Source: Natator depressus
Taxonomy: Eukaryota
Length of the DNA: 39,704 bases
Direction: 5' to 3'
Assembly (NCBI RefSeq): GCF_965152275.1
Contig: NW_027439781.1
Coordinates: 1-39,704 of the forward strand
Each line of letters begins with the position of its first letter. The first letter of the stretch is position 1. Of this stretch, positions 5,524 through 26,680 are shown piece by piece. The translations under genes were made by a program, and so were the position numbers. Below the pieces are notes generated by a model. The model saw only the letters and a list, made by a program, of their open reading frames with translations, had not been told where the DNA came from and searched no databases.

Positions 5524-5648
5524 ATGGCCGTGATCTTCCTCTTCAGCTGTTGCTTCTTCCCCAACTTCTTCCTCGCCCTCCGCTGGGCACTGTACCACAC
5601 CCGGGCCTTGGGCATGGACCAGCTGCATGCCATCTATGTCGCTGCCAA
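5524..5648 (+). CDS. TLCD3B: TLCD3B (FAM57B) alternative 5' coding exon 1a. MAVIFLFSCCFFPNFFLALRWALYHTRALGMDQLHAIYVAA plus 2 bases.
   Basis: ATG follows ttccttctcccag. The exon ends GCTGCCAA|GTAAAG, phase 2. The FFPxFFLALRWAL motif matches the TLC-family N-terminus (FAM57A/B). It joins exon 3 in frame (AA+G gives K-LVSS). Confidence 0.6.
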
Positions 5649-6952: not shown

Positions 6953-7078
6953 AGATGTTTCACCCTTGGTGGCTGGGGGCATCGTCTTCCCAGGGCTCTT
7001 CCTGCTGGCCAAGAACAGCCTCAAGCGGCTGCCCTGGCTGCAGTGGGATGAGGCCGACGCTGTCATCATCTCAGCCAG
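6953..7078 (+). CDS. TLCD3B: TLCD3B exon 2 (alternative 5' exon, or a cassette exon). (K/R)DVSPLVAGGIVFPGLFLLAKNSLKRLPWLQWDEADAVIISA(R).
   Basis: Matches human FAM57B isoform 1 N-terminus MLTPMVAGGVVFPGLFLLSKNTLQRLPQLRWEEADAVIVSAR. Acceptor ccccatcag|, donor TCAGCCAG|GTACCC. 126 nt, phase 2 in and out. The nearest in-frame ATG is at 6828. Confidence 0.7.
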
Positions 7079-7089
7079 GTACCCCAGGA

Positions 7090-10000
7090 TGCAGCGAAGG
7101 AGTCAGGGACTGGAGGAGGGATGCAGGGATGGAGGGAAGCAGTCAGGGACTGGAGGAGGGATGCAGGGATGGAGGGAAGCAGTCAGGGACTGGAGGAGGG
7201 ATCCAGGGATGCAGGGAAGGAGTCAGGGATAGAAGAATGAAAAAGGGAAAGAGGCACTGGCATGGGAGGGATGAGTGAAAGGAGGCTGCAGAGGGATGGA
7301 GGGAAGGAGACACTGGCAGGGAAGGAGGCAGTGGAGGGATGCAGGAATGGAGGGAAGGAGGCAGTGGCAATGGCATTGGAGGGATGGAGAGAAGGAGGCA
7401 GTGGAGGGATGGAGGCAGTGGAAGCAGAGGGATGGAGGGAAGGAGGCAGTGGCAGCGGCAGCGGAGGGATGGAAGCAGTGGCGGGATGGAGGCAGTGGAA
7501 GTGGAAGGATGGAGGGATGGAAGCAGTGGCAGTGGAGGGATGGAGAGAAGGAGGCAGTGGAAGTGGAGGGAAGGAGGCAGTGGCAGTGGCGGGATGGAAG
7601 CAGTGGAGGGATGGACGAAAGGAGGGAGTGGAAGTGGAGAGATGGAAGCAGTGGAGGCAAGGAGGCAGTGGCAGTGGAGGGATGGAACCGGTGGAGGGAT
7701 GGAGGGAAGGAGGCATTGGCAGTGGAGGGATGGAAGCAGCAGAGGGAAGGGGGCACTGGCAGTGGAGGGATGGAGGGAAGGAGGCAGTGGCAGGGGAGGG
7801 ATGGAAGCGGTGGAGGGAAGGAGGCAGTGGAAGTGGAGGGAAGAAGGCAGTGGCAATGGAGGGATGGAGGCAGTGGCAGTGGAGAGATGGAAGCAGTGGA
7901 GGGAAGGAGGCAGTGCCAGCAGAGGGATGGAAGCAGTGGAAGTGGAAGGATGGAGAGAAGGAGGCGGTGGCAGTGGATGGAAGGAGGGAGTGGCAGTGGC
8001 AGTGGAGGGATGGACAGAAGGAGGCAGTGGCAGTGGAGGGAAGGAGGCAGTGGCAGTGGAGGGAAGGAGGCAGTGGCAGTGGAGGGAAGAAGGGAAGGAG
8101 GCAGTGGCAGTGGAGAGATGGAGGCAGTGGGAGCGGAGGGAAGGAGGCAGTGGCAGTGACAGCGGAGGGATGGAGGGAATGCGGCAGTGGCAGCGGAGGG
8201 ATGGAAGCCATGGAGGGATGGAGAGAAGGAGGCAGTGGCTGTGGATGGAAGGAGGCAGTGGCAGTGGACGGAAGGAGGAAAGGAGGCAGTGGAAGCAGTG
8301 GAGGGAAGGAGGCAGTGGGAGCGGAGGGATGGAGGCAGTGGCAGTGGCAGCGGAGGGATGGAAGCTGTGGAGGGAAGGAGGCAGTGGCAGTGCAGGGATG
8401 GAGGGAAGGAGGCAGTGGCAGTGGAGGGAAGGAGGCAGTGGCAGTGGAGGGAAGGAGGCAGTGGAAGCAGTGGAGGGAAGGAGGCAGTGGGAGTGGCAGC
8501 GGAGGGATGGAAGCTGTGGAGGGAAGGACGGAAGGAGGCAGTGGCAGTGGACGGAAGGAGGCAGTGGCAGTGGACGGAAGGAGAGAAGGAGGCAGTGGAA
8601 GCAGTGGACGGAAGGAGGCAGTGGAGGGAAGGAGGCAGTGGCAGTGCAGGGATGGAGGCAGTGGCAGCGGAGGGAAGGAGGCAGTGGCAGTGGAGGGAAG
8701 GAGGCAGTGGAAGCAGTGGAGGGAAGGAGGCAGTGGCAGTGGCAGCGGAGGGATGGAAGCTGTGGAGGGAAGGACAGAAGGAGGCAGTGGCAGTGGACGG
8801 AAGGAGGCAGTGGCAGTGGACGGAAGGAGAGAAGGAGGCAGTGGAAGCAGTGGACGGAAGGAGGCAGTGGAGGGAAGGAGGCAGTGGCAGTGCAGGGATG
8901 GAGGCAGTGGCAGCGGAGGGATGGAAACCATGGAGGGATGGAGAGAAGGAGGCAGTGGCAGTGGACGGAAGGAGGCAGTGGCAGTGGCAGTGGAGGGATG
9001 GAGGCAGTGGCAGTGGAGGGAAGGAGGCAGTGGCAGCGGAGGGATGGAAGCTGTGGAGGGATGGACAGAAGGAGGCAGTGGCAGTGGACAGAAGGAGGCA
9101 GTGGCAGTGGACGGAAGGAGGGAAGGAGGCAGTGGAAGCAGTGGAGGGAAGGAGGCAGTGGAAGCAGTGGAGGGAAGGAGGCAGTGGCTGTGGAGGGATG
9201 GAGGCAGTGGCAGTGGCTGTGGAGGGATGGAGGCAGTGGCTGTGGAGGGAAGGTGGCAGTGGAGGGATGGAGGCAGTGGCAGTGGAGGGATGGAGGCAGT
9301 GGCAGTGGAGGGATGGAGGCAGTGGAGGGAAGGAGGCAGTGGCAGCGCAGGGATGGAGGGAAGGAGGCAGTGGAAGCGGAGGGAAGGAGGCAGTGGAAGC
9401 GGAGGGAAGGAGGCAGTGGCAGCAGAGGGATGGAGGCAGCGGAGGGAAGGAGGCAGTGGCAGCGGAGGGATGGAGGGAAGGAGGCAGTGGCAGTGGAGGC
9501 ATGGAGGGAAGGAGGCAGTGGAGGCATGGAGGGAAGGAGGCAGTGGCAGTGGCGGGATGGAGGCAGTGGCAGTGGCGGGATGGAGGGAAGGAGGCAGTGG
9601 AAGCGGAGGGATGGAGGCAGTGGAGGGAAGGAGGCAGTGGCAGTGGAGGGAAGGAGGCAATGGAGGGTTGGAGGGAAGGAGGCATTGGCAGTGGAGGGTA
9701 GGAGGCAATGGAGGGTTGGAGGGAAGGAGGCAGTGACAGTGGAGGGTTGGAGGGAAGGAGGCAGTGGCAGTGGAGGGTTGGAGGGAAGGAGGCAGTGGCG
9801 GGATGGAGGGAAGGAGGCAGTGGCAGTGGCGGGATGGAGGGAAGGAGGCAGTGGCAGTGGAGGGATGGAGGGAAGGAGGCAGTGGAAGCGGAGGGAAGGA
9901 GGCAGTGGAAGCGGAGGGAAGGAGGCAGTGGAGGGATGGAGGGAAGGAGGCAGTGGCAGTGGAGGGAAGGAGGCAGTGGCAGTGGAGGGGACGAGGGAAG

Positions 10001-11200
10001 GAGGGAAGGTGGCAGTGGAGGGAAGGAGGGAAGGTGGCAGTGGAGGGAAGGAGGGAAGGTGGCAGTGGAGGGAAGGAGGCAGTGGCAGTGGAGGGAAGGA
10101 GGCAAGGAGGCAGTGGAGGGATGGAGGGAAGGAGGCAGTGGCAGTGGAGGGAAGGAGGGATGGAGGCAGTGGAGGGAAGGAGGGATGGAGGCAGTGGCAG
10201 TGGAGGGATGGAGGCAGTGGAAGCGGAGGGAAGGAGGCAGTGGCAGCAGAGAGATGGAGGCAGCGGAGGGATGGAGGCAGTGGAATCGGAGGGATGGAGG
10301 CAGTGGAATCGGAGGGATGGAGGCAGTGGAAGCGGAGGGATGGAGGGAAGGCAGTGGAAGCGGAGGGATGGAGGCAGTGGCAGTGGAGGGATGGAGGCAG
10401 TGGCAGTGGAGGGATGGAGGCAGTGGCAGTGGAGGGATGGAGGGAAGGAGGCAGTGGGAGCGGAGGGAAGGAGGCAGTGGGAGCGGAGGGGTGGAGGGAA
10501 GGAGGCAGTGAAAGTGGAGGGGAGGAGGCAGTGAAAGTGGAGGGGAGGAGGCAGTGGCAGTGGAGGGATGGAGGGGAGGAGGCAGTGAAAGTGGAGGGGA
10601 GGAGGCAGTGGCAGTGGAGGGATGGAGGGGAGGAGGCAGTGAAAGTGGAGGGGAGGAGGCAGTGAAAGTGGAGGGGAGGAGGCAGTGGCAGTGCAGGGAT
10701 GGAGGGAAGGAGGCAGTGGGAGCGGAGGGAAGGAGGCAGTGGGAGCGGAGGGATGGAGGCAGTGGCAGTGGAAGCGGAGGGATGGAGGCAGTGGAAGCGG
10801 AGGGAAGGAGGCAGTGGCAGTGGAGGGATGGAGGGAAGGAGGCAGTGGCAGTGGAGGGTTGGAGGGAAGGAGGCAGTGGCAGTGGAGGGATGGAGGGAAG
10901 GAGGCAGTAGGAGCGGAGGGAAGGAGGCAGTGAGAGCGGAGGGAAGGAGGCAGTGGCAGTGGAGGGTTGGAGGGAAGGAGGCAGTGGAAGTGGAGGGTTG
11001 GAGGGAAGGAGGCAGTGGGAGCGGAGGGAAGGAGGGAAGGAGGCAGTGGAGGGAAGGAGGCAGTGGCAGTGGAGGGTTGGAGGGAAGGAGGCAGTGGCAG
11101 TGGAGGGAAGGAGGCAGTGGCAGTGGAGGGATGGAGGGAAGAAGGCAGTAGAAGCGGAGGGAAGGACGCAGTGGGAGCGGAGGGCTGCAGCCATGCACTG
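7090..11200 (+). repeat. 4.1-kb purine/G-rich minisatellite in TLCD3B intron 2. Units of roughly 27-33 bp (ggagggaaggaggcagtggcagtggagggatgg) with sub-variants.
   Basis: Continuous GGA/GGC-rich periodic sequence. It is the source of the 1351-aa and 1454-aa artefact ORFs in the track. Confidence 0.9.
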
Positions 11201-11822
11201 GCTCATGGGGCGAAGGCTGACGGGGGTTCCTTCGTCAGGGCCACGCTTCAGGCAGGAAACAGTGGGGTGTCTGTGCCTGCTGCTGAGGCTGGGGGGTGGG
11301 ACCTGCCAGGCCGGGGAGCAGCCTGCCCTCGTGGGCCACGCACGTCCCCCAGCCGGGGAGGGGCCGGGGCGCGGGGCTGAGGGGGATGGCGGAGGAGGGC
11401 AGCGGCCAGCTGGGGGGGGGTGCTGGCTGCTCTGGACAGGGATGGCCAGGGTGAGAGACCGCAGAGGGGTGACCTGGGAGGCCCTGGGTTTGGATCCCCG
11501 TGGGAGAGGGGGCTCCTGAAGGCTGGATCCCTGTGGGGGGAGGGGCCCCAGGAGGCTGGGGATCCTGCCACCTCTGCTCCCAGCCACACATCAGAGGGGA
11601 TTTCAATGCAGTGACTGGGCCTGTCAGCCCCCCACCAGAGCCATGTGCACCCCCAACAGCCCTCACTAGTCCCCTCTGCACCCCACACATTCCAGAGCAG
11701 CAGTTATGGGCACAGATTAGTGATCATCCTGGAGCCTCGGGCTGGGCTAGTGGGGGGCTGCGGGTCAGGGTTGAGGGAAAAGAGGGGCTGGTCCCGTTAA
11801 CCCTGCGTCCCTCCCCTGCAGG

Positions 11823-11906
11823 CTGGTCTCCTCCATCCAAGCCGTCATGGCCTCCACAGCCGGATACATCGTTTTCAGCTCCTGCCAACACGTTATCGAT
11901 GACCAG
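11823..11906 (+). CDS. TLCD3B: TLCD3B exon 3. (K/R)LVSSIQAVMASTAGYIVFSSCQHVIDD(Q).
   Basis: Acceptor ctgcag|G, donor GACCA|GTGAGT. Matches human LVSSVQAIMASTAGYIVSTSCKHIIDDQ. Confidence 0.85.
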
Positions 11907-13029: not shown

Positions 13030-13500
13030 CCCTCCGCATCATTGGGCTAGTGCCTCTCACTCCCGACCCGCAGCCCCCTGCTAGCCCAGCCCTGCCCCCC
13101 CCAGCTGTGCCGGTGCCCCTCACTCCCGACCCGCAGTCCCCTGCTAGCCCAGCCCTCAGCCCCTCCAGCCCTGCCGGTGCCCCTCACTCCCGACCCACAG
13201 CCCCCTGCTAGCCCAGCCCTCAGCCCCTCCAGCCCTGCCGGTGCCCCTCATTCCCGACCCGCAGCCCCCTGCCAGCCCAGCCCTGCCCCCCCCTGCCCTG
13301 CCGGTGCCCCTCACTCCCGACCCGCAGCCCCCTGCTAGCCCAGCCCTGCCCCCCCCCAGCTGTGCCGGTGCCCCTCACTCCCGACCTGCAGCCCCCTGCT
13401 AGCCCAGCCCTGCCGGTGCCCCTCACTCCCGACCCACAGCCCCCTGCTAGCCCAGCCCTGCCCCCCAGCTCTGCTGGTGCCCCTCACTCCCGACCCACAG
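13030..13500. repeat. Dispersed minisatellite family, array A. Core ctgccggtgcccctcactcccgacccgcagccccctgc, unit about 60 bp, about 8 copies.
   Basis: Direct periodicity. The same core in reverse complement occurs at 13680-13920. Confidence 0.8.
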
Positions 13501-13679
13501 CCCCTGAATCCTTTGTCCCACTGCAGCATCCTGGGCTGCGGCTCTGGCATGGGGCCTAATCGGCTCACACTGGGCAGAGGCCTCTGTCAGCACAATTTGG
13601 CAGCGGGACTGCAGCATGGGGCGGCGGGGGGGGGGGTGCAGGTGGAGGGGCCGGGGGCCAAGCTTGGAAGGAGGGACAG

Positions 13680-13920
13680 GGCCTATGGCTGGGCTAGCAG
13701 GGGCTGCGGGTCGGGAGTGAGGGGCACCGGCAGAGCTGGGGGGGCAGGGCTGGGGTAGTAGGGGCTGCGGGTCGGGAGTGAGGGGCACCAGCAGAGCTGG
13801 GGGGCAGGGCTGGGCTGGCAGGGGCTGCGGGTCGGGAGTGAGGGGCACCAGCAGAGCTGGGGGGCAGGGCTGGGGTAGCAGGGGCTGCGGGTTGGGAGTG
13901 AGGGGCACCAGCAGAGCTGG
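13680..13920. repeat. Dispersed minisatellite family, array B (gggctgcgggtcgggagtgaggggcaccggcag...). It is inverted relative to array A and forms an imperfect palindrome with arms about 180 bp apart.
   Basis: Reverse complement of array A units. The + and - strand ORFs read the same [10 protein letters not shown] peptide. Confidence 0.8.
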
Positions 13921-14380
13921 GGGGTATCCTCGCTGTGGGTCATGGTTGTGGCTGCCCCATGGGCTGTGGGGGGTGGAGGCGCCTGGCTCGGCTCCGGGTG
14001 GAGGAGGCTGCGTTCCCTATGACCTTGCAGCAGCTGTTGCCCGTCAATACTCCATCGATCCTCCCAGTCCCTACCCACCAGGCCACACTGCCGCCACGCT
14101 CGCCAGCCTGCGCCCCATGGCCTGTCTCCCCCATCCCGGTGAGCAGGCCAGGGCAGGTTACCCCTGCCAGCCCCACCCTCTGCCTGAGGTGCTGCTGGAT
14201 CCCCCAGCCCAGCCCCCCACACAGCTCCCCCCAGGCCCTGGCACTGCAGAGCCCCTCCTCCTGGCAGCTTCCGCTGCCTTGTGTCCCACCCCTCTCCCCT
14301 AGCACCCCCAGCAGGGCCCCACTGCCCCCGCCAGCTTCCCCTGCCCCCGCGGCAGCTCTAACCCCTCTGTCTTCCCCCAG

Positions 14381-14600
14381 GCACTGGCTGACGAGCGCCT
14401 ACACGGAGTTTGCGGTGCCCTACTTCATCTACGACATCTACGCCATGTTCCTCTGCCACTGGCACAGGTACCGGGTGAAGGGGCACGAGGCTGCGGGGCC
14501 CCGCTCGCTGCGCACCGCCACCCGCGCCTTCCTGCGCAAGGAGTTCCTCATGGTGCTGCACCACCTCTGCATGGTGCTGGTGTGCTTCCCCGTCTCCGTG
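14381..14600 (+). CDS. TLCD3B: TLCD3B exon 4. (Q)HWLTSAYTEFAVPYFIYDIYAMFLCHWHRYRVKGHEAAGPRSLRTATRAFLRKEFLMVLHHLCMVLVCFPVSV.
   Basis: Strong match to human HWLSSAYTQFAVPYFIYDIYAMFLCHWHKHQVKGH...KEFLMVLHHAAMVLVCFPLSV. Acceptor cttcccccag|G, donor GTG|GTGAGTGGG. Confidence 0.9.
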
Positions 14601-15560
14601 GTGAGTGGGCCCCGATAGCCGCAGGGGGCTGCACCCCCTCTGCATGGTGCTGGTGTGCTTCCCCGTCTCCGTGGTGAGTGGCCCCCGATAGCCGCAGGGG
14701 GGCCCCCCGATAGCCGCAGGGGGCTGCACCCCCTCTGCATGGTGCTGGTGTGCTTCCCCGTCTCCGTGGTGAGTGGCCCCCGATAGCCGCAGGGGGCTGC
14801 ACCCCCTCTGCATGGTGCTGGTGTGCTTCCCCGTCTCCGTGGTGAGTGGCCCCCGATAGCCGCAGGGGGGCCCCCCGATAGCCGCAGGGGGCTGCACCCC
14901 CTCTGCATGGTGCTGGTGTGCTTCCCCGTCTCCGTGGTGAGTGGGCCCCGATAGCCGCAGGGGGCTGCACCCCCTCTGCATGGTGCTGGTGTGCTTCCCC
15001 GTCTCCGTGGTGAGTGGGCCCCGATAGCCGCAGGGGGGCCCCTGATAGCCGCAGGGGGCTGCACCCCCTCTGCATGGTGCTGGTGGGCTTCCCCCTCTCC
15101 GTGGTGAGTGGGGCCCGATAGCCGCAGGGGGGCCCCTGATAGCCGCAGGGGGCTGCACCCCCTCTGCATGGTGCTGGTGGGCTTCCCCCTCTCCGTGGTG
15201 AGTGGGCCCCGATAGCCGCAGGGGGGCCCCCCGATAGCCGCAGGGGGCTGCACCCCCTCTGCATGGTGCTGGTGTGCTTCCCCGTCTCCGTGGTGAGTGG
15301 GCCCCGATAGCCGCAGGGGGCTGCACCCCCTCTGCATGGTGCTGGTGTGCTTCCCCGTCTCCGTGGTGAGTGGGCCCCGATAGCCGCAGGGGGGCCCCTG
15401 ATAGCCGCAGGGGGCTGCACCCCCTCTGCATGGTGCTGGTGGGCTTCCCCCTCTCCGTGGTGAGTGGGGCCCGATAGCCGCAGGGGGGCCCCTGATAGCC
15501 GCAGGGGGCTGCACCCCCTCTGCATGGTGCTGGTGGGCTTCCCCCTCTCCATGGTGAGTG
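14601..15560 (+). repeat. About 11 tandem copies (73 bp, or 94 bp with an insert) of the 3' end of TLCD3B exon 4 plus its donor (ctctgcatggtgctggtgtgcttccccgtctccgtg|gtgagtgggccccgatagccgcagggggctgcaccc). They fill almost all of intron 4.
   Basis: Direct. Each copy keeps a GTGAGTGG donor and a ...ccgcag|g acceptor-like site. Confidence 0.9.
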
Positions 15561-15700
15561 GGGCCCGAGATCCCCAGGAGGCCGTAAGAAGGCAAGGGGT
15601 GGGACCGAGCCACAGGAGGGAAGTGGGGGTCCTGAGCCCATGAGGGGGCAGGAGGGGGCTAGTTCCCACCAGCTGCCCCTCACCCCCCCTCTCTCCCCAG

Positions 15701-15796
15701 CTGTGGCGCCAGGGGAAGGGCGATTTCTTCCTGGGCTGCATGCTGATGGCCGAGCTGAGCACCCCCTTCGTCTCCCTGGGCAAGGTGCTCATCCTG
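15701..15796 (+). CDS. TLCD3B: TLCD3B exon 5. [32 protein letters not shown].
   Basis: Matches human [32 protein letters not shown]. Acceptor ctctccccag|, donor CTG|GTGAGT. Confidence 0.9.
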
Positions 15797-16075: not shown

Positions 16076-16384
16076 TACAAGCGGCAGCACACCCTGCTGC
16101 ACAAGGTGAACGGGCTGCTCATGCTGGTGACCTTCTTCTGCTGCCGCATCCTGCTCTTCCCCTACATGTACCGGGCCTACGGGCGCCACGCCGGGCTGCC
16201 CCTGCACCGCGTGCCCCTCGCCCTGCCGCCCGCCTACAACCTGGGCGCCGCCCTGCTCCTGGCCCCCCAGCTCTACTGGTTCGGCCTCATCTGCCGCGGG
16301 GCCGTCCGCCTCTTCCGCCGTGCCCCGCCCACGGACCCCGCCCTGCGCAACGGGCATGGCCCCGGGGGGCGGGCGCTGGACTGA
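16076..16384 (+). CDS. TLCD3B: TLCD3B last exon. [102 protein letters not shown] followed by a stop (TGA at 16382-16384).
   Basis: Matches human [80 protein letters not shown]. Acceptor ctctctcccccag|. Confidence 0.9.
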   Translation, partial: [102 protein letters not shown]

Positions 16385-16660
16385 GAACCCCCGGTGCCAG
16401 GGGCACGGCCTCTGGGGGCGGGCGCTGGACTGAGACCCCCCCAGTGCCACGGGCACCGCCCCCAGGCCGGGTGCTGGACTGAGACCCCCGCCCTGCGCCA
16501 CGGGCACGGCCCCGGGGGGCGGGCGCTGGACTGAGAACCCCCGGTGCCAGGGGCACGGCCTCTGGGGGCGGGTGCTGGACAGAGACCCCCCGGTGCCACG
16601 GGCACCGCCCCCGGGGGCGGGCGCTGAACAGAGACCCCCCCAGTGCCACGGGCACCACCC
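16330..16660 (+). repeat. About 6 tandem copies of a 60-bp unit (gccacgggcacggccccggggggcgggcgctggactgagaacccccggt). They include the last 14 codons and stop of TLCD3B and extend into the 3'UTR.
   Basis: Direct. The first copy is coding, and later copies retain ctggactgaga. Confidence 0.8.
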
Positions 16661-16842
16661 CAGCCTACCTGCTCTGTGCTAAGGGCATATCCTCGGGGGG
16701 GCTCGCTGGCCTGAGCCCCCCTGCCCGTGTGGTGCCATGGGCACAGCCCCAAGGCCCTGGCATGAGACCGTCCCCGCGTGGTGGGCACGGGGTGAACTGA
16801 CATCTGGGGCCAGCGCCCAGAGCCTCAGCTTCTAACGACTTT

Positions 16843-16860
16843 ATTTATTTATTTATTGGG
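16843..16860 (-). terminator. (TTTA)n run. On the - strand it reads AATAAATAAATAAA and is a candidate poly(A) signal for the - strand gene ending at 17726.
   Basis: gactttatttatttatttatt on the + strand. Inference only. Confidence 0.3.
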
Positions 16861-17725
16861 GGCCCTCCCTGGAATTCTCCGGGGGCTGCTGCAGGAGGGA
16901 GTGGGGCCCCCCTTGGACTGACAGGGGCTGACTGCAACCCCCATTCTCAGGGGTCTGCCCAGTAGCACCTGGGGCGGTCCCCCTGGGTGGTGCAGCTCAG
17001 ACACCCCCAGTAATGGGGGAATGAGGTGCAAATCGGGGGGTTGGCTGTGTTGGGAGGCGAGGGTTTAGCCTGGAGATTTGGGGGACCCCTGGGAATCTCA
17101 GGGGGCCACCCAGGGGATTGAATTCCTGCCCCACCAGAGTGTGGGGGGACCCAGCCAGACTCCACCAGCAGACAGTTTGGGTGGACTTGGGGACCCCCCA
17201 CACTGCCCCCCACTGTAGCAATAACCAGGCAGCGGGTGGGGAACTGACCCCCCCAACAAGGACTGTGAGCTCTGCACCCCCCAGCTGCTCGCTGGGTCAG
17301 GATGTATACGGGGGGGGGATTTCCAACCCTGGGGGCTGCAAAGTATTAAAGGAGCCTTGATCCAATGCCAGTGCCGCTGCCTCCGGGTGATTATTACCCC
17401 CCACCCCCCAGACTGCCCCCCAGCCAGTGCCTCAGGGTGATTATGAACCCCCAGCCCCCCAAAACTGCCCCCCAGCCAGCACCTGCAGGGGACTGTTACT
17501 GCCCCCCCCCCCGGGTGCCAGGCACTGGGGATGCCAAGACAATGCAGCTCTTTACTGGGGGGGGCAAAGCTGAACCCTGACATCCTGCAGCTCCTCAGCT
17601 CTGCGTCCTGCAGACCCTAAGAGAGAACAAGGGGGGGGTCACTGCCAGCCTCCCGGCAGCACTGGGGCGGGGGGGGTTGGAGAGGACCAGGCCAGGGAAT
17701 AGGACCCAGGCGTCCGGGGAGACAC

Positions 17726-17959: not shown

Positions 17960-18300
17960 CCCAGGGCTGGGCTAGCAGGGGCTGCAGGTCGGGAGTGAGG
18001 GGCACCGGCAGGGCTGGGGGCGCAGGGGCTGCGGGTCGGGAGTGAGGGGCACCGGCAGGGCTGGGGGCGCAGGGGCTGCGGGTCGGGAGTGAGGGGCACC
18101 GGCAGGGCTGGGGGGGCAGGGGCTGCGGGTCGGGAGTGAGGGGCACCGGCAGGGCTGGGGGCGCAGGGGCTGCGGGTCGGGAGTGAGGGGCACCGGCAGG
18201 GCTGGGGGGGCAGGGGCTGCGGGTCGGGAGTGAGGGGCACCGGCAGGGCTGGGGGCGCAGGGGCTGCGGGTCGGGAGTGAGGGGCACCGGCAGGGCTGGG
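17960..18300. repeat. Dispersed minisatellite family, array C (gggctgcgggtcgggagtgaggggcaccggcagggctgggggcgcag, 47 bp, about 7 copies), in the intron of gene X.
   Basis: Direct periodicity. Same core as 13680-13920. Confidence 0.85.
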
Positions 18301-22539: not shown

Positions 22540-22930
22540 TCGGGATCCCGGTGCCCCTCACTCCCGACCCGCAGCCCCCTGCCCCCCCCGCCGGTGCCCC
22601 TCACTCCCGACCCGCAGCCCCCTGCCCCCCCTGCCGGTGCCCCTCACTCCCCACCCGCAGCCCCCTGCCCCTCCTGCCGGTGCCCCTCACTCCCCACCCA
22701 CAGCCCCCTGCCCCCCCTGCCGGTGCCCCTCACTCCCCACCCACAGCCCCCTGCCCCCCCTGCCGGTGCCCCTCACTCCCCACCCACAGCCCCCTGCCCG
22801 CCCTGTGCCCCTCACTCCCCACCCGCAGCCCCCTGCCTCCCCCGCTCTGCCGGTGCCCCTCACTCCCCACCCGCAGCCCCCTGCCTCCCCCGCTCTGCCG
22901 GTGCCCCTCACTCCCGACCCGCAGCCCCCC
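22540..22930. repeat. Dispersed minisatellite family, array D (ccggtgcccctcactcccgacccgcagccccctgcccccc, unit about 45-50 bp, about 8 copies), in an MVP intron.
   Basis: Direct periodicity. Same core as the arrays at 13030-13920 and 17960-18300. Confidence 0.85.
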
Positions 22931-22956
22931 GCCAGCCCAGCCCTGGACTCCCCCAC

Positions 22957-26239: not shown

Positions 26240-26680
26240 CAGATCAGGAGTGAGGGGGACCGGCAGAGCTGGGGGGACAGGCCCAGGGCTGGGGGGGCTG
26301 CGGGTCGGGAGTGAGGGGCACCGGCGGAGCTGCGGGGGGGGGGGCAGGGCTGGGCTAGCAGGGGCTGTAGGTCGGGAGCGAGGGGCACCGGCAGAGCGGA
26401 CGGGGGGACGGGCCCAGGGCGGTGGGGCGGGAGCGAGGGGCGCCGGCAGACCGGATGGGGGGACGGGCCCAGGGTGGCGGGGCGGGAGCGAGGGGCGCCG
26501 GCAGAGCGGACGGGGGGACGGGCCCAGGGCGGGAGCGAGGGGCGCCGGCAGAGCGGACGGGGGGACGGGCCCAGGGCTGGGGGGCGGGAGCGAGGGGCGC
26601 TGGCAGAGCGGACGGGGGGACAGGCCCAGGGCTGGGGGGCGGGAGCGAGGGGCACCGGCAGAGCGGACGGGGGGCGGTAC
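26240..26680. repeat. Dispersed minisatellite family, array E. This is a diverged variant (cgggagcgaggggcgccggcagagcggacggggggacgggcccagggc, unit about 60 bp) whose first units are the canonical gggctgcgggtcgggagtgaggggcaccggc. It lies in an MVP intron.
   Basis: Direct periodicity. Confidence 0.8.

Follow-up and report, generated by a model that had tools for sequence, protein, structure and literature searches.

The window analysed here, a stretch of 39,704 nucleotides from the turtle Natator depressus, carries the gene TLCD3B (FAM57B) on its forward strand. Translation and tblastn exon mapping gave a five-exon model (Table 1) whose product is identical to XP_074797733.1 (“ceramide synthase isoform X1 [Natator depressus]”) and whose stop codon has the position given in the NCBI annotation, which confirms both the gene and the stop codon called in an earlier note on this DNA. 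In the protein search the turtle TLCD3B sequences matched with E = 1e-120 to 1e-125 and with PF03798, as expected of TLCD3B orthologues, and the turtle matches, annotated as “ceramide synthase”, were 87-92% identical. TLCD3B is a non-canonical ceramide synthase that has been investigated in the retina and in the context of 16p11.2 (PMC10387349, PMC8934561).

Two further observations concern the gene as a whole. An alternative first exon, 1B, has a 1-nt deletion right after its start codon (ATGTTTCAC-CCTTGG in Natator vs ATGTTTCACGCCTTGG in Mauremys, Pangshura and Varanus); it shifts the frame of the isoform starting with MFHALVAGG, and no full-length isoform of that type is listed for Natator. 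Either the isoform has truly been lost, or the indel arose in the assembly. In the turtle loci whose flank reaches MVP (major vault protein), this gene lies tail-to-tail with TLCD3B, on the opposite strand and convergent, and its coding end is found 1.7-1.9 kb past the TLCD3B stop in Pangshura and one Caretta-type assembly. At human 16p11.2 many other genes separate TLCD3B from MVP, thus the local gene order differs between human and turtles.

The end of the TLCD3B coding region forms the first unit of a tandem array. Over the whole window, TRF placed this array at 16334-16655 with a period of 49, 6.5 copies, 81% matches and a score of 400, and assigned to it a higher-order period of 150 nt (2.2 copies, 90% matches, score 528); a repeat search returned start-to-start spacings of 49, 101 and 49. 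When split at the conserved ...GCGCTGGACTGA anchor, the array resolves into units of 51, 49, 49, 52, 49 and 49 nt followed by a partial seventh, and the 60-bp unit of the earlier note is thereby corrected to 49-52 bp. Its placement of about six copies at 16330-16660 agrees with the array proper and falls short of the decayed units, which run on to ~16800. The GC content of the array is 79.5%. A 16-nt core, GGGCGCTGGACTGAGA, has six matches at up to 2 mismatches, all of them within the array, where shuffles lead one to expect 0.06, and a 35-nt version of the core occurs three times vs none expected. With head-to-tail units in the range of ~10-100 bp, well above chance both by TRF and by the core-motif count, the array is a minisatellite. 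An origin of the unit from a dispersed repeat or transposon was discarded, as the unit is found nowhere else in the window.

Later units resemble unit 1 from ~45-48 nt before the stop onwards. As had been claimed, the first copy spans the TGA, and it covers 15-16 codons rather than the 14 proposed. The motif ctggacTGAga, reported as retained in later copies, is kept in units 1-4 only, since unit 5 reads ctggacAGAga and unit 6 ctgaacAGAga. Unit 4 shares 94% identity with the coding unit 1, unit 5 shares 96% with unit 2, and this pairing of units 4 and 5 with units 1 and 2 underlies the 150-nt higher-order period. As 150 is a multiple of three, the TGA of unit 4 at 16532 is in frame with the coding sequence, and read-through would repeat the 15-residue tail 50 codons past the true stop. 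The in-frame copy of the tail is a by-product of the duplication. A role as a back-up stop codon was rejected, because the next in-frame stop is these 50 codons away and not within a few codons. The class of translated coding VNTRs does not apply either, given units of 49-52 nt and a stop in unit 1 that ends translation. As all later copies lie downstream of that stop and are untranslated, in line with the earlier note, the array is without effect on the TLCD3B protein and the ancestral tail is unchanged.

Table 1. Positions of TLCD3B, its repeats and neighbouring features, counted from the first nucleotide of the window.
Feature	Positions	Strand	Description	Basis
TLCD3B five-exon model	5524-5648, 11822-11905, 14381-14600, 15701-15796, 16076-16384	+	277 aa	
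TLCD3B (FAM57B) last coding exon	16076-16384	+	TGA stop 16382-16384	translation, tblastn exon map
Alternative first exon 1B, deletion site	6955-6970	+	1-nt deletion	
Purine-rich minisatellite	7348-11184	+	3.8 kb; units of 23, 31 and 54 nt	
Arrays with core GTGCCCCTCACTCCCGACCCGCAGCCCCCTGC	13050-13504, 13687-13924, 17962-18300, 22548-22933, 26240-26674	+, -, -, +, -		
Exon 3 array	14555-15568	+	periods of 73, 95 and 168 nt	
Unit 1	16334-16384	+	51 nt; sole translated unit, 16 residues and stop	TRF array start, unit table
Units 2-6	16385-16433, 16434-16482, 16483-16534, 16535-16583, 16584-16632	+	each 49-52 nt, untranslated	
Partial unit 7	16633-16660	+	3' junction of the homogeneous array	TRF, unit table
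Old flank with 2-3 decayed units	16661-16800	+	~51-60% identity to the coding unit	
TTTATTTATTTATTTATT element, then GGGG	16840-16857	+	AU-rich-element-like; marks the ancestral 3'UTR just past the array	
Block ctgcaaagtATTAAAggagcct...aatgccag	17320-17385	+	conserved in all ten loci	
ATTAAA, likely TLCD3B poly(A) signal	17345-17350	+	within the conserved block	
Short array	17378-17512	+	units of ~33-57 nt	

The codons directly 5' of the repeat (16313-16340 and the turtle orthologues) vary in length, with the versions TDPAL, KDTAAL, KDTATAAL, KDAATATAAL, KDATSAAL and KEPPAL, a variation that fits slippage within a (GCC/ACC)n tract. In the same place the sea-turtle sequence gaccccgccctg looks like a unit-to-unit junction, and given this resemblance a conversion from the array into the coding sequence is conceivable.

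Comparison of the C-termini and 3'UTRs of Testudines and other reptiles, which the earlier note had proposed, revealed an ancient tail and an array confined, among the loci examined, to hard-shelled turtles. In the alignment the tail LRNGH...ALD* was found in every turtle and squamate sampled. Its turtle form is common to Natator, the pleurodire Pelusios, Mauremys, Pangshura, Platysternon and Gopherus, with PLHNGHGPGGQALD in Pelodiscus, and the squamate form VLRNGH(R/P)...(Q/K)ALD is present in Varanus, Anolis, Notechis, Pogona and Tiliqua. The (R/K)NGH motif also occurs in salamander, frog, caecilian, lungfish, bichir and sturgeon, and the tails of mammals (primates, marsupials), birds and alligator are the divergent ones. 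The turtle tail indeed differs from the human tail, as stated earlier, but according to this alignment the difference reflects mammalian, bird and crocodilian divergence and not a turtle novelty. Among seven turtle species the coding unit is 88-100% identical. Furthermore, Varanus komodoensis and Tiliqua scincoides carry the tail with the identical ctggactga ending; TRF found no tandem repeat downstream of their TLCD3B stop, and their downstream sequence has no similarity to the coding unit above chance. By these comparisons the tail is older than the repeat.

At the DNA level, TLCD3B loci from nine other assemblies were compared, a set to which pleurodires, emydids, chelydrids and Anolis do not belong. 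An orthologous array that starts at the same codons, 45-48 nt before the stop, is present in seven hard-shelled turtle species of four families. TRF counted 10.9 copies in Chelonia mydas, 14.2 in each of two Caretta-type assemblies, 13.9 in Mauremys reevesii, 4.4 in Pangshura tecta and 4.7-5.6 in Platysternon, and ~12 units were counted by the anchor in Gopherus flavomarginatus. Copy number at this orthologous locus with shared flanks thus varies between the seven turtle species from 4.4 to 14.2, figures to be read with the proviso that GC-rich repeats can be mis-assembled; within a species, the two Caretta-type assemblies agree on 14.2. The 3' junction cccagcctacctgctctg (..cctcccag[c/g]ct[a/c]cctgctctg..) is common to Natator, Chelonia, Caretta, Platysternon, Mauremys, Pangshura and Gopherus. 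In all hard-shelled turtles examined, the distal decayed units (Natator 7-9, Chelonia 12-14, Mauremys 14-15) are orthologous. The shared junction together with the shared decayed units argues for a single origin. In the softshell turtle Pelodiscus sinensis no array follows the stop; one decayed half-unit reached a local alignment score of 26 vs 16.2 ± 2.7 in shuffles, a score of 26 being attained by 18 of 2000 shuffles.

A landmark beyond the array allows the same comparison with squamates. In Varanus and Tiliqua only 47-53 nt separate the stop from the conserved TTATTTATTTATT(GGGG) element, vs 384-837 nt in six hard-shelled turtle species, among them Natator with 456 nt, and Gopherus keeps only a degenerate copy of the element. 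This spacing implies that the array is an expansion inserted between the stop and a landmark of the ancestral 3'UTR. Overlapping UUAUUUAUU nonamers are typical of AU-rich instability elements; the TTTATTTATTTATTTATT(GGGG) element contains such overlapping nonamers, and its minus strand reads as repeated AATAAA.

The units have not stayed unchanged. The nearest neighbour of a non-coding unit was found in the same species for 37 of the 56 units compared across seven species, in the same family for 12 and in another family for 7; units are thus mostly closest to units of their own species, a sign that turnover is still going on. Within-lineage homogenisation is further evident from higher-order repeats of 150 nt in Natator, 128 nt in Gopherus and 98-99 nt in Pangshura and Chelonia. 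Units at the edges are orthologous: unit 2 of Natator matches unit 2 of Chelonia at 98% identity, and unit 8 of Natator matches unit 13 of Chelonia at 94%. In every species the cleanest units adjoin the coding sequence and the decayed ones are distal, an apparent polarity. Nearly all Mauremys units are 82-90% identical to the coding unit. Most units of Caretta, Chelonia and Gopherus are of a diverged type (gtgccacgggcac or gtgccatgggcac) and are closer to each other than to the coding unit.

The position of the array within the transcript was derived from the sequence that follows it. The ctgcaaagtATTAAAggagcct...aatgccag block is conserved in all ten loci, both squamates included, and encloses the ATTAAA of Table 1, which is the only ATTAAA between the TLCD3B stop and 20.5 kb, an interval that has no AATAAA. 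This ATTAAA, 960 nt past the stop, is therefore likely to serve as the TLCD3B poly(A) signal and the surrounding block as the site of cleavage, which would put the whole array inside the 3'UTR. Just past the putative poly(A) site there is a short array with GGGTG(A/C)TTAT...CCCCCAGCCAGC in its units. Arrays of this type, with a length that varies by species, are found in Natator, Chelonia, Caretta, Mauremys, Platysternon and Gopherus, and Pelodiscus has a GGGTGTGATCCCAGCCAGTGCCCCC array at the matching position.

A hairpin or otherwise structured element was considered on account of the suggestive gtgccacgggcac palindrome and rejected, since folding of the single-stranded DNA gave z-scores of -0.2 to -1.0 vs shuffles. 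The Rfam search gave no match above chance, the only hit being SNORD23 on the minus strand (19.6 bits vs a gathering score of 64, E = 0.33), and the sense strand has no G-quadruplex motifs, even with loops of up to 12 nt. From the lack of structure, Rfam family and G-quadruplex, which is evidence from absence, and from a copy number that varies threefold between species, we infer that the array is neutral or nearly so. A recognisable consensus including the GCGCTGGACTGAG core is kept across the four families, and this could stem from selection on a 3'UTR motif or from homogenisation.

The stop-codon array is not unusual in its surroundings. The window, with a GC content of 65.6%, contains 23 minisatellite arrays, this one included, which cover 32% of it. 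In the six chromosome-scale assemblies (Mauremys, Pangshura, Chelonia, Gopherus and both of Caretta type) the orthologous loci are 0.6-1.1 Mb from the end of a macrochromosome; a GC-rich and subtelomeric setting, typical of minisatellites but not obligatory, is thus found through the orthologues, the Natator record being an unplaced 85-kb contig. GC-rich, repeat-rich subtelomeric regions have been documented in chicken, and some of the gene clusters studied there were likely in such regions before the divergence of turtles and birds (PMC9021737).

A second array in TLCD3B combines the final ~46 nt of exon 3 with the GTGAGT donor and 25-45 nt of intron. In Natator it comprises 12 copies of the exon-end motif, with 11 candidate donor copies downstream of the authentic donor, and these decoy donors could affect splicing. 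It is also present in Chelonia (19 copies), Mauremys, Pangshura, Platysternon and Gopherus, numbers 6 vs 12 copies in the two Caretta-type assemblies and is absent in Pelodiscus, Varanus and Tiliqua, so that its taxonomic distribution equals that of the stop-codon array. Taken with the subtelomeric orthologues, the 23 local arrays, the exon 3 array among them, speak for a mutational process of the region that turns any sequence it meets, even exons, into arrays. Most of TLCD3B intron 1 is filled by the purine-rich minisatellite (GGCAGTGGAGGGATGGAGGCAGT), which has a strong GC and AT skew. Moreover, five arrays in both orientations share the core GTGCCCCTCACTCCCGACCCGCAGCCCCCTGC, which is suggestive of an element that forms arrays at scattered places and may descend from a transposon.

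Taken together, the array is very probably a GC-rich minisatellite of the VNTR type in the TLCD3B 3'UTR that was seeded by a duplication of the coding end with its stop and has undergone neutral turnover since. A segment of ~50 bp, reaching from ~15 codons before the TGA to 5-6 nt into the UTR, would have been duplicated in tandem in an ancestor of the hard-shelled turtles (Durocryptodira), and an initial decayed copy may be older than their divergence from softshell turtles. The array would then have expanded, contracted and been homogenised independently in each lineage, with slippage, unequal exchange and gene conversion as the likely mechanisms, and its persistence since that ancestor probably exceeds 100 million years by our own estimate. 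The earlier note had left open whether the tail was captured from a minisatellite or had seeded one; seeding is borne out by the same array at the same codons in seven hard-shelled species and by the greater age of the tail. In a capture, a pre-existing minisatellite would have extended into the gene, or the gene would have been read into it, giving turtles a new C-terminus, as could be suspected from a tail that is unlike that of primates, marsupials, birds and alligator and that equals the first array unit. This is hardly credible, as squamates have the same tail and ctggactga without the repeat, Pelodiscus has the tail without the array and the NGH motif is older than tetrapods. The squamate and Pelodiscus loci refute the capture, and the tail without a flanking repeat, as in Varanus and Tiliqua, is what the earlier note had named beforehand as evidence against it. 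Equally small is the chance of an assembly artefact or of independent origins in different lineages: GC-rich repeats are hard to assemble and the copy numbers may be inaccurate, but eight independent assemblies share the 5' start, the 3' junction and the decayed distal units.

The more substantial alternatives concern what has maintained the array. The coding unit, held by selection, might act as a lasting template that re-seeds the array through duplication or gene conversion. This would account for the lack of decay and would suit the near-identity, in Natator, of unit 4 to the coding unit and of unit 5 to unit 2, the resemblance of nearly all Mauremys units to the coding unit and the gradient from clean units next to the coding sequence to decayed distal ones in every species. 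On the other hand, diverged-type units dominate in Caretta, Chelonia and Gopherus, and their closeness to one another rather than to the coding unit implies that most amplification occurred inside the array; we regard such self-renewal as possible, if unlikely. Persistence in four families with a conserved core, between the stop and conserved 3'UTR elements, might instead mean that the units are multimerised protein- or RNA-binding sites kept by selection in hard-shelled turtles. This appears quite improbable in view of a copy number that ranges freely from 4 to 14, species-specific unit sequences, no structure beyond composition and no Rfam family, and of a region that also produced the exon 3/intron array and 21 more arrays, as a regional mutational process would. 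Somewhat less doubtful, yet still improbable, is a selection-anchored minisatellite in which coding unit 1 is the lasting re-seeding template and, alternatively or additionally, the tail copies form a dosage-tunable 3'UTR regulatory module.

A minisatellite seeded by the coding end can be set beside known systems. Classical GC-rich minisatellites (VNTRs) cluster near chromosome ends, and the TLCD3B array resembles them in its head-to-tail units of ~50 bp, its 79.5% GC, the copy-number differences between species, the internal higher-order duplications, the within-species homogenisation and the subtelomeric position of its orthologues. It differs from them in that it was founded by the coding end of its host gene, stop included, rather than by an anonymous sequence, and in that the variation is seen between species. 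Human SLC6A3/DAT1 has a 3'UTR VNTR with a 40-bp repeat; the TLCD3B array likewise consists of units of tens of bp between the stop and a putative poly(A) signal, but starts inside the coding sequence and is derived from it. Human CEL has a 33-bp coding VNTR in its last exon, and the TLCD3B array too is a last-exon repeat that overlaps the C-terminal coding region. In contrast to CEL, its 49-52-nt units are not divisible by three, each carries a stop and translation covers only the first, hence a change in copy number leaves the protein unaltered.

The array is thus an ordinary, if old, minisatellite, mildly unusual in that its founding unit is a coding end with a stop and its start has been fixed since the hard-shelled ancestor. 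For annotation of GC-rich, repeat-rich regions in turtles it carries the warning that tblastn can place the tail of a protein on a downstream pseudo-copy and that array length differs widely among species, perhaps also among assemblies. It may serve as a length marker that tells turtle species apart. Its consequence for the biology of TLCD3B is little, as the protein is unchanged. Nevertheless, it provides a clean, dated example of a minisatellite born from the end of a coding exon without harm to the gene, since every copy brings a stop codon of its own, and it shows that the 5' boundary of an array can be held in place over very long times if it lies inside a sequence under selection.
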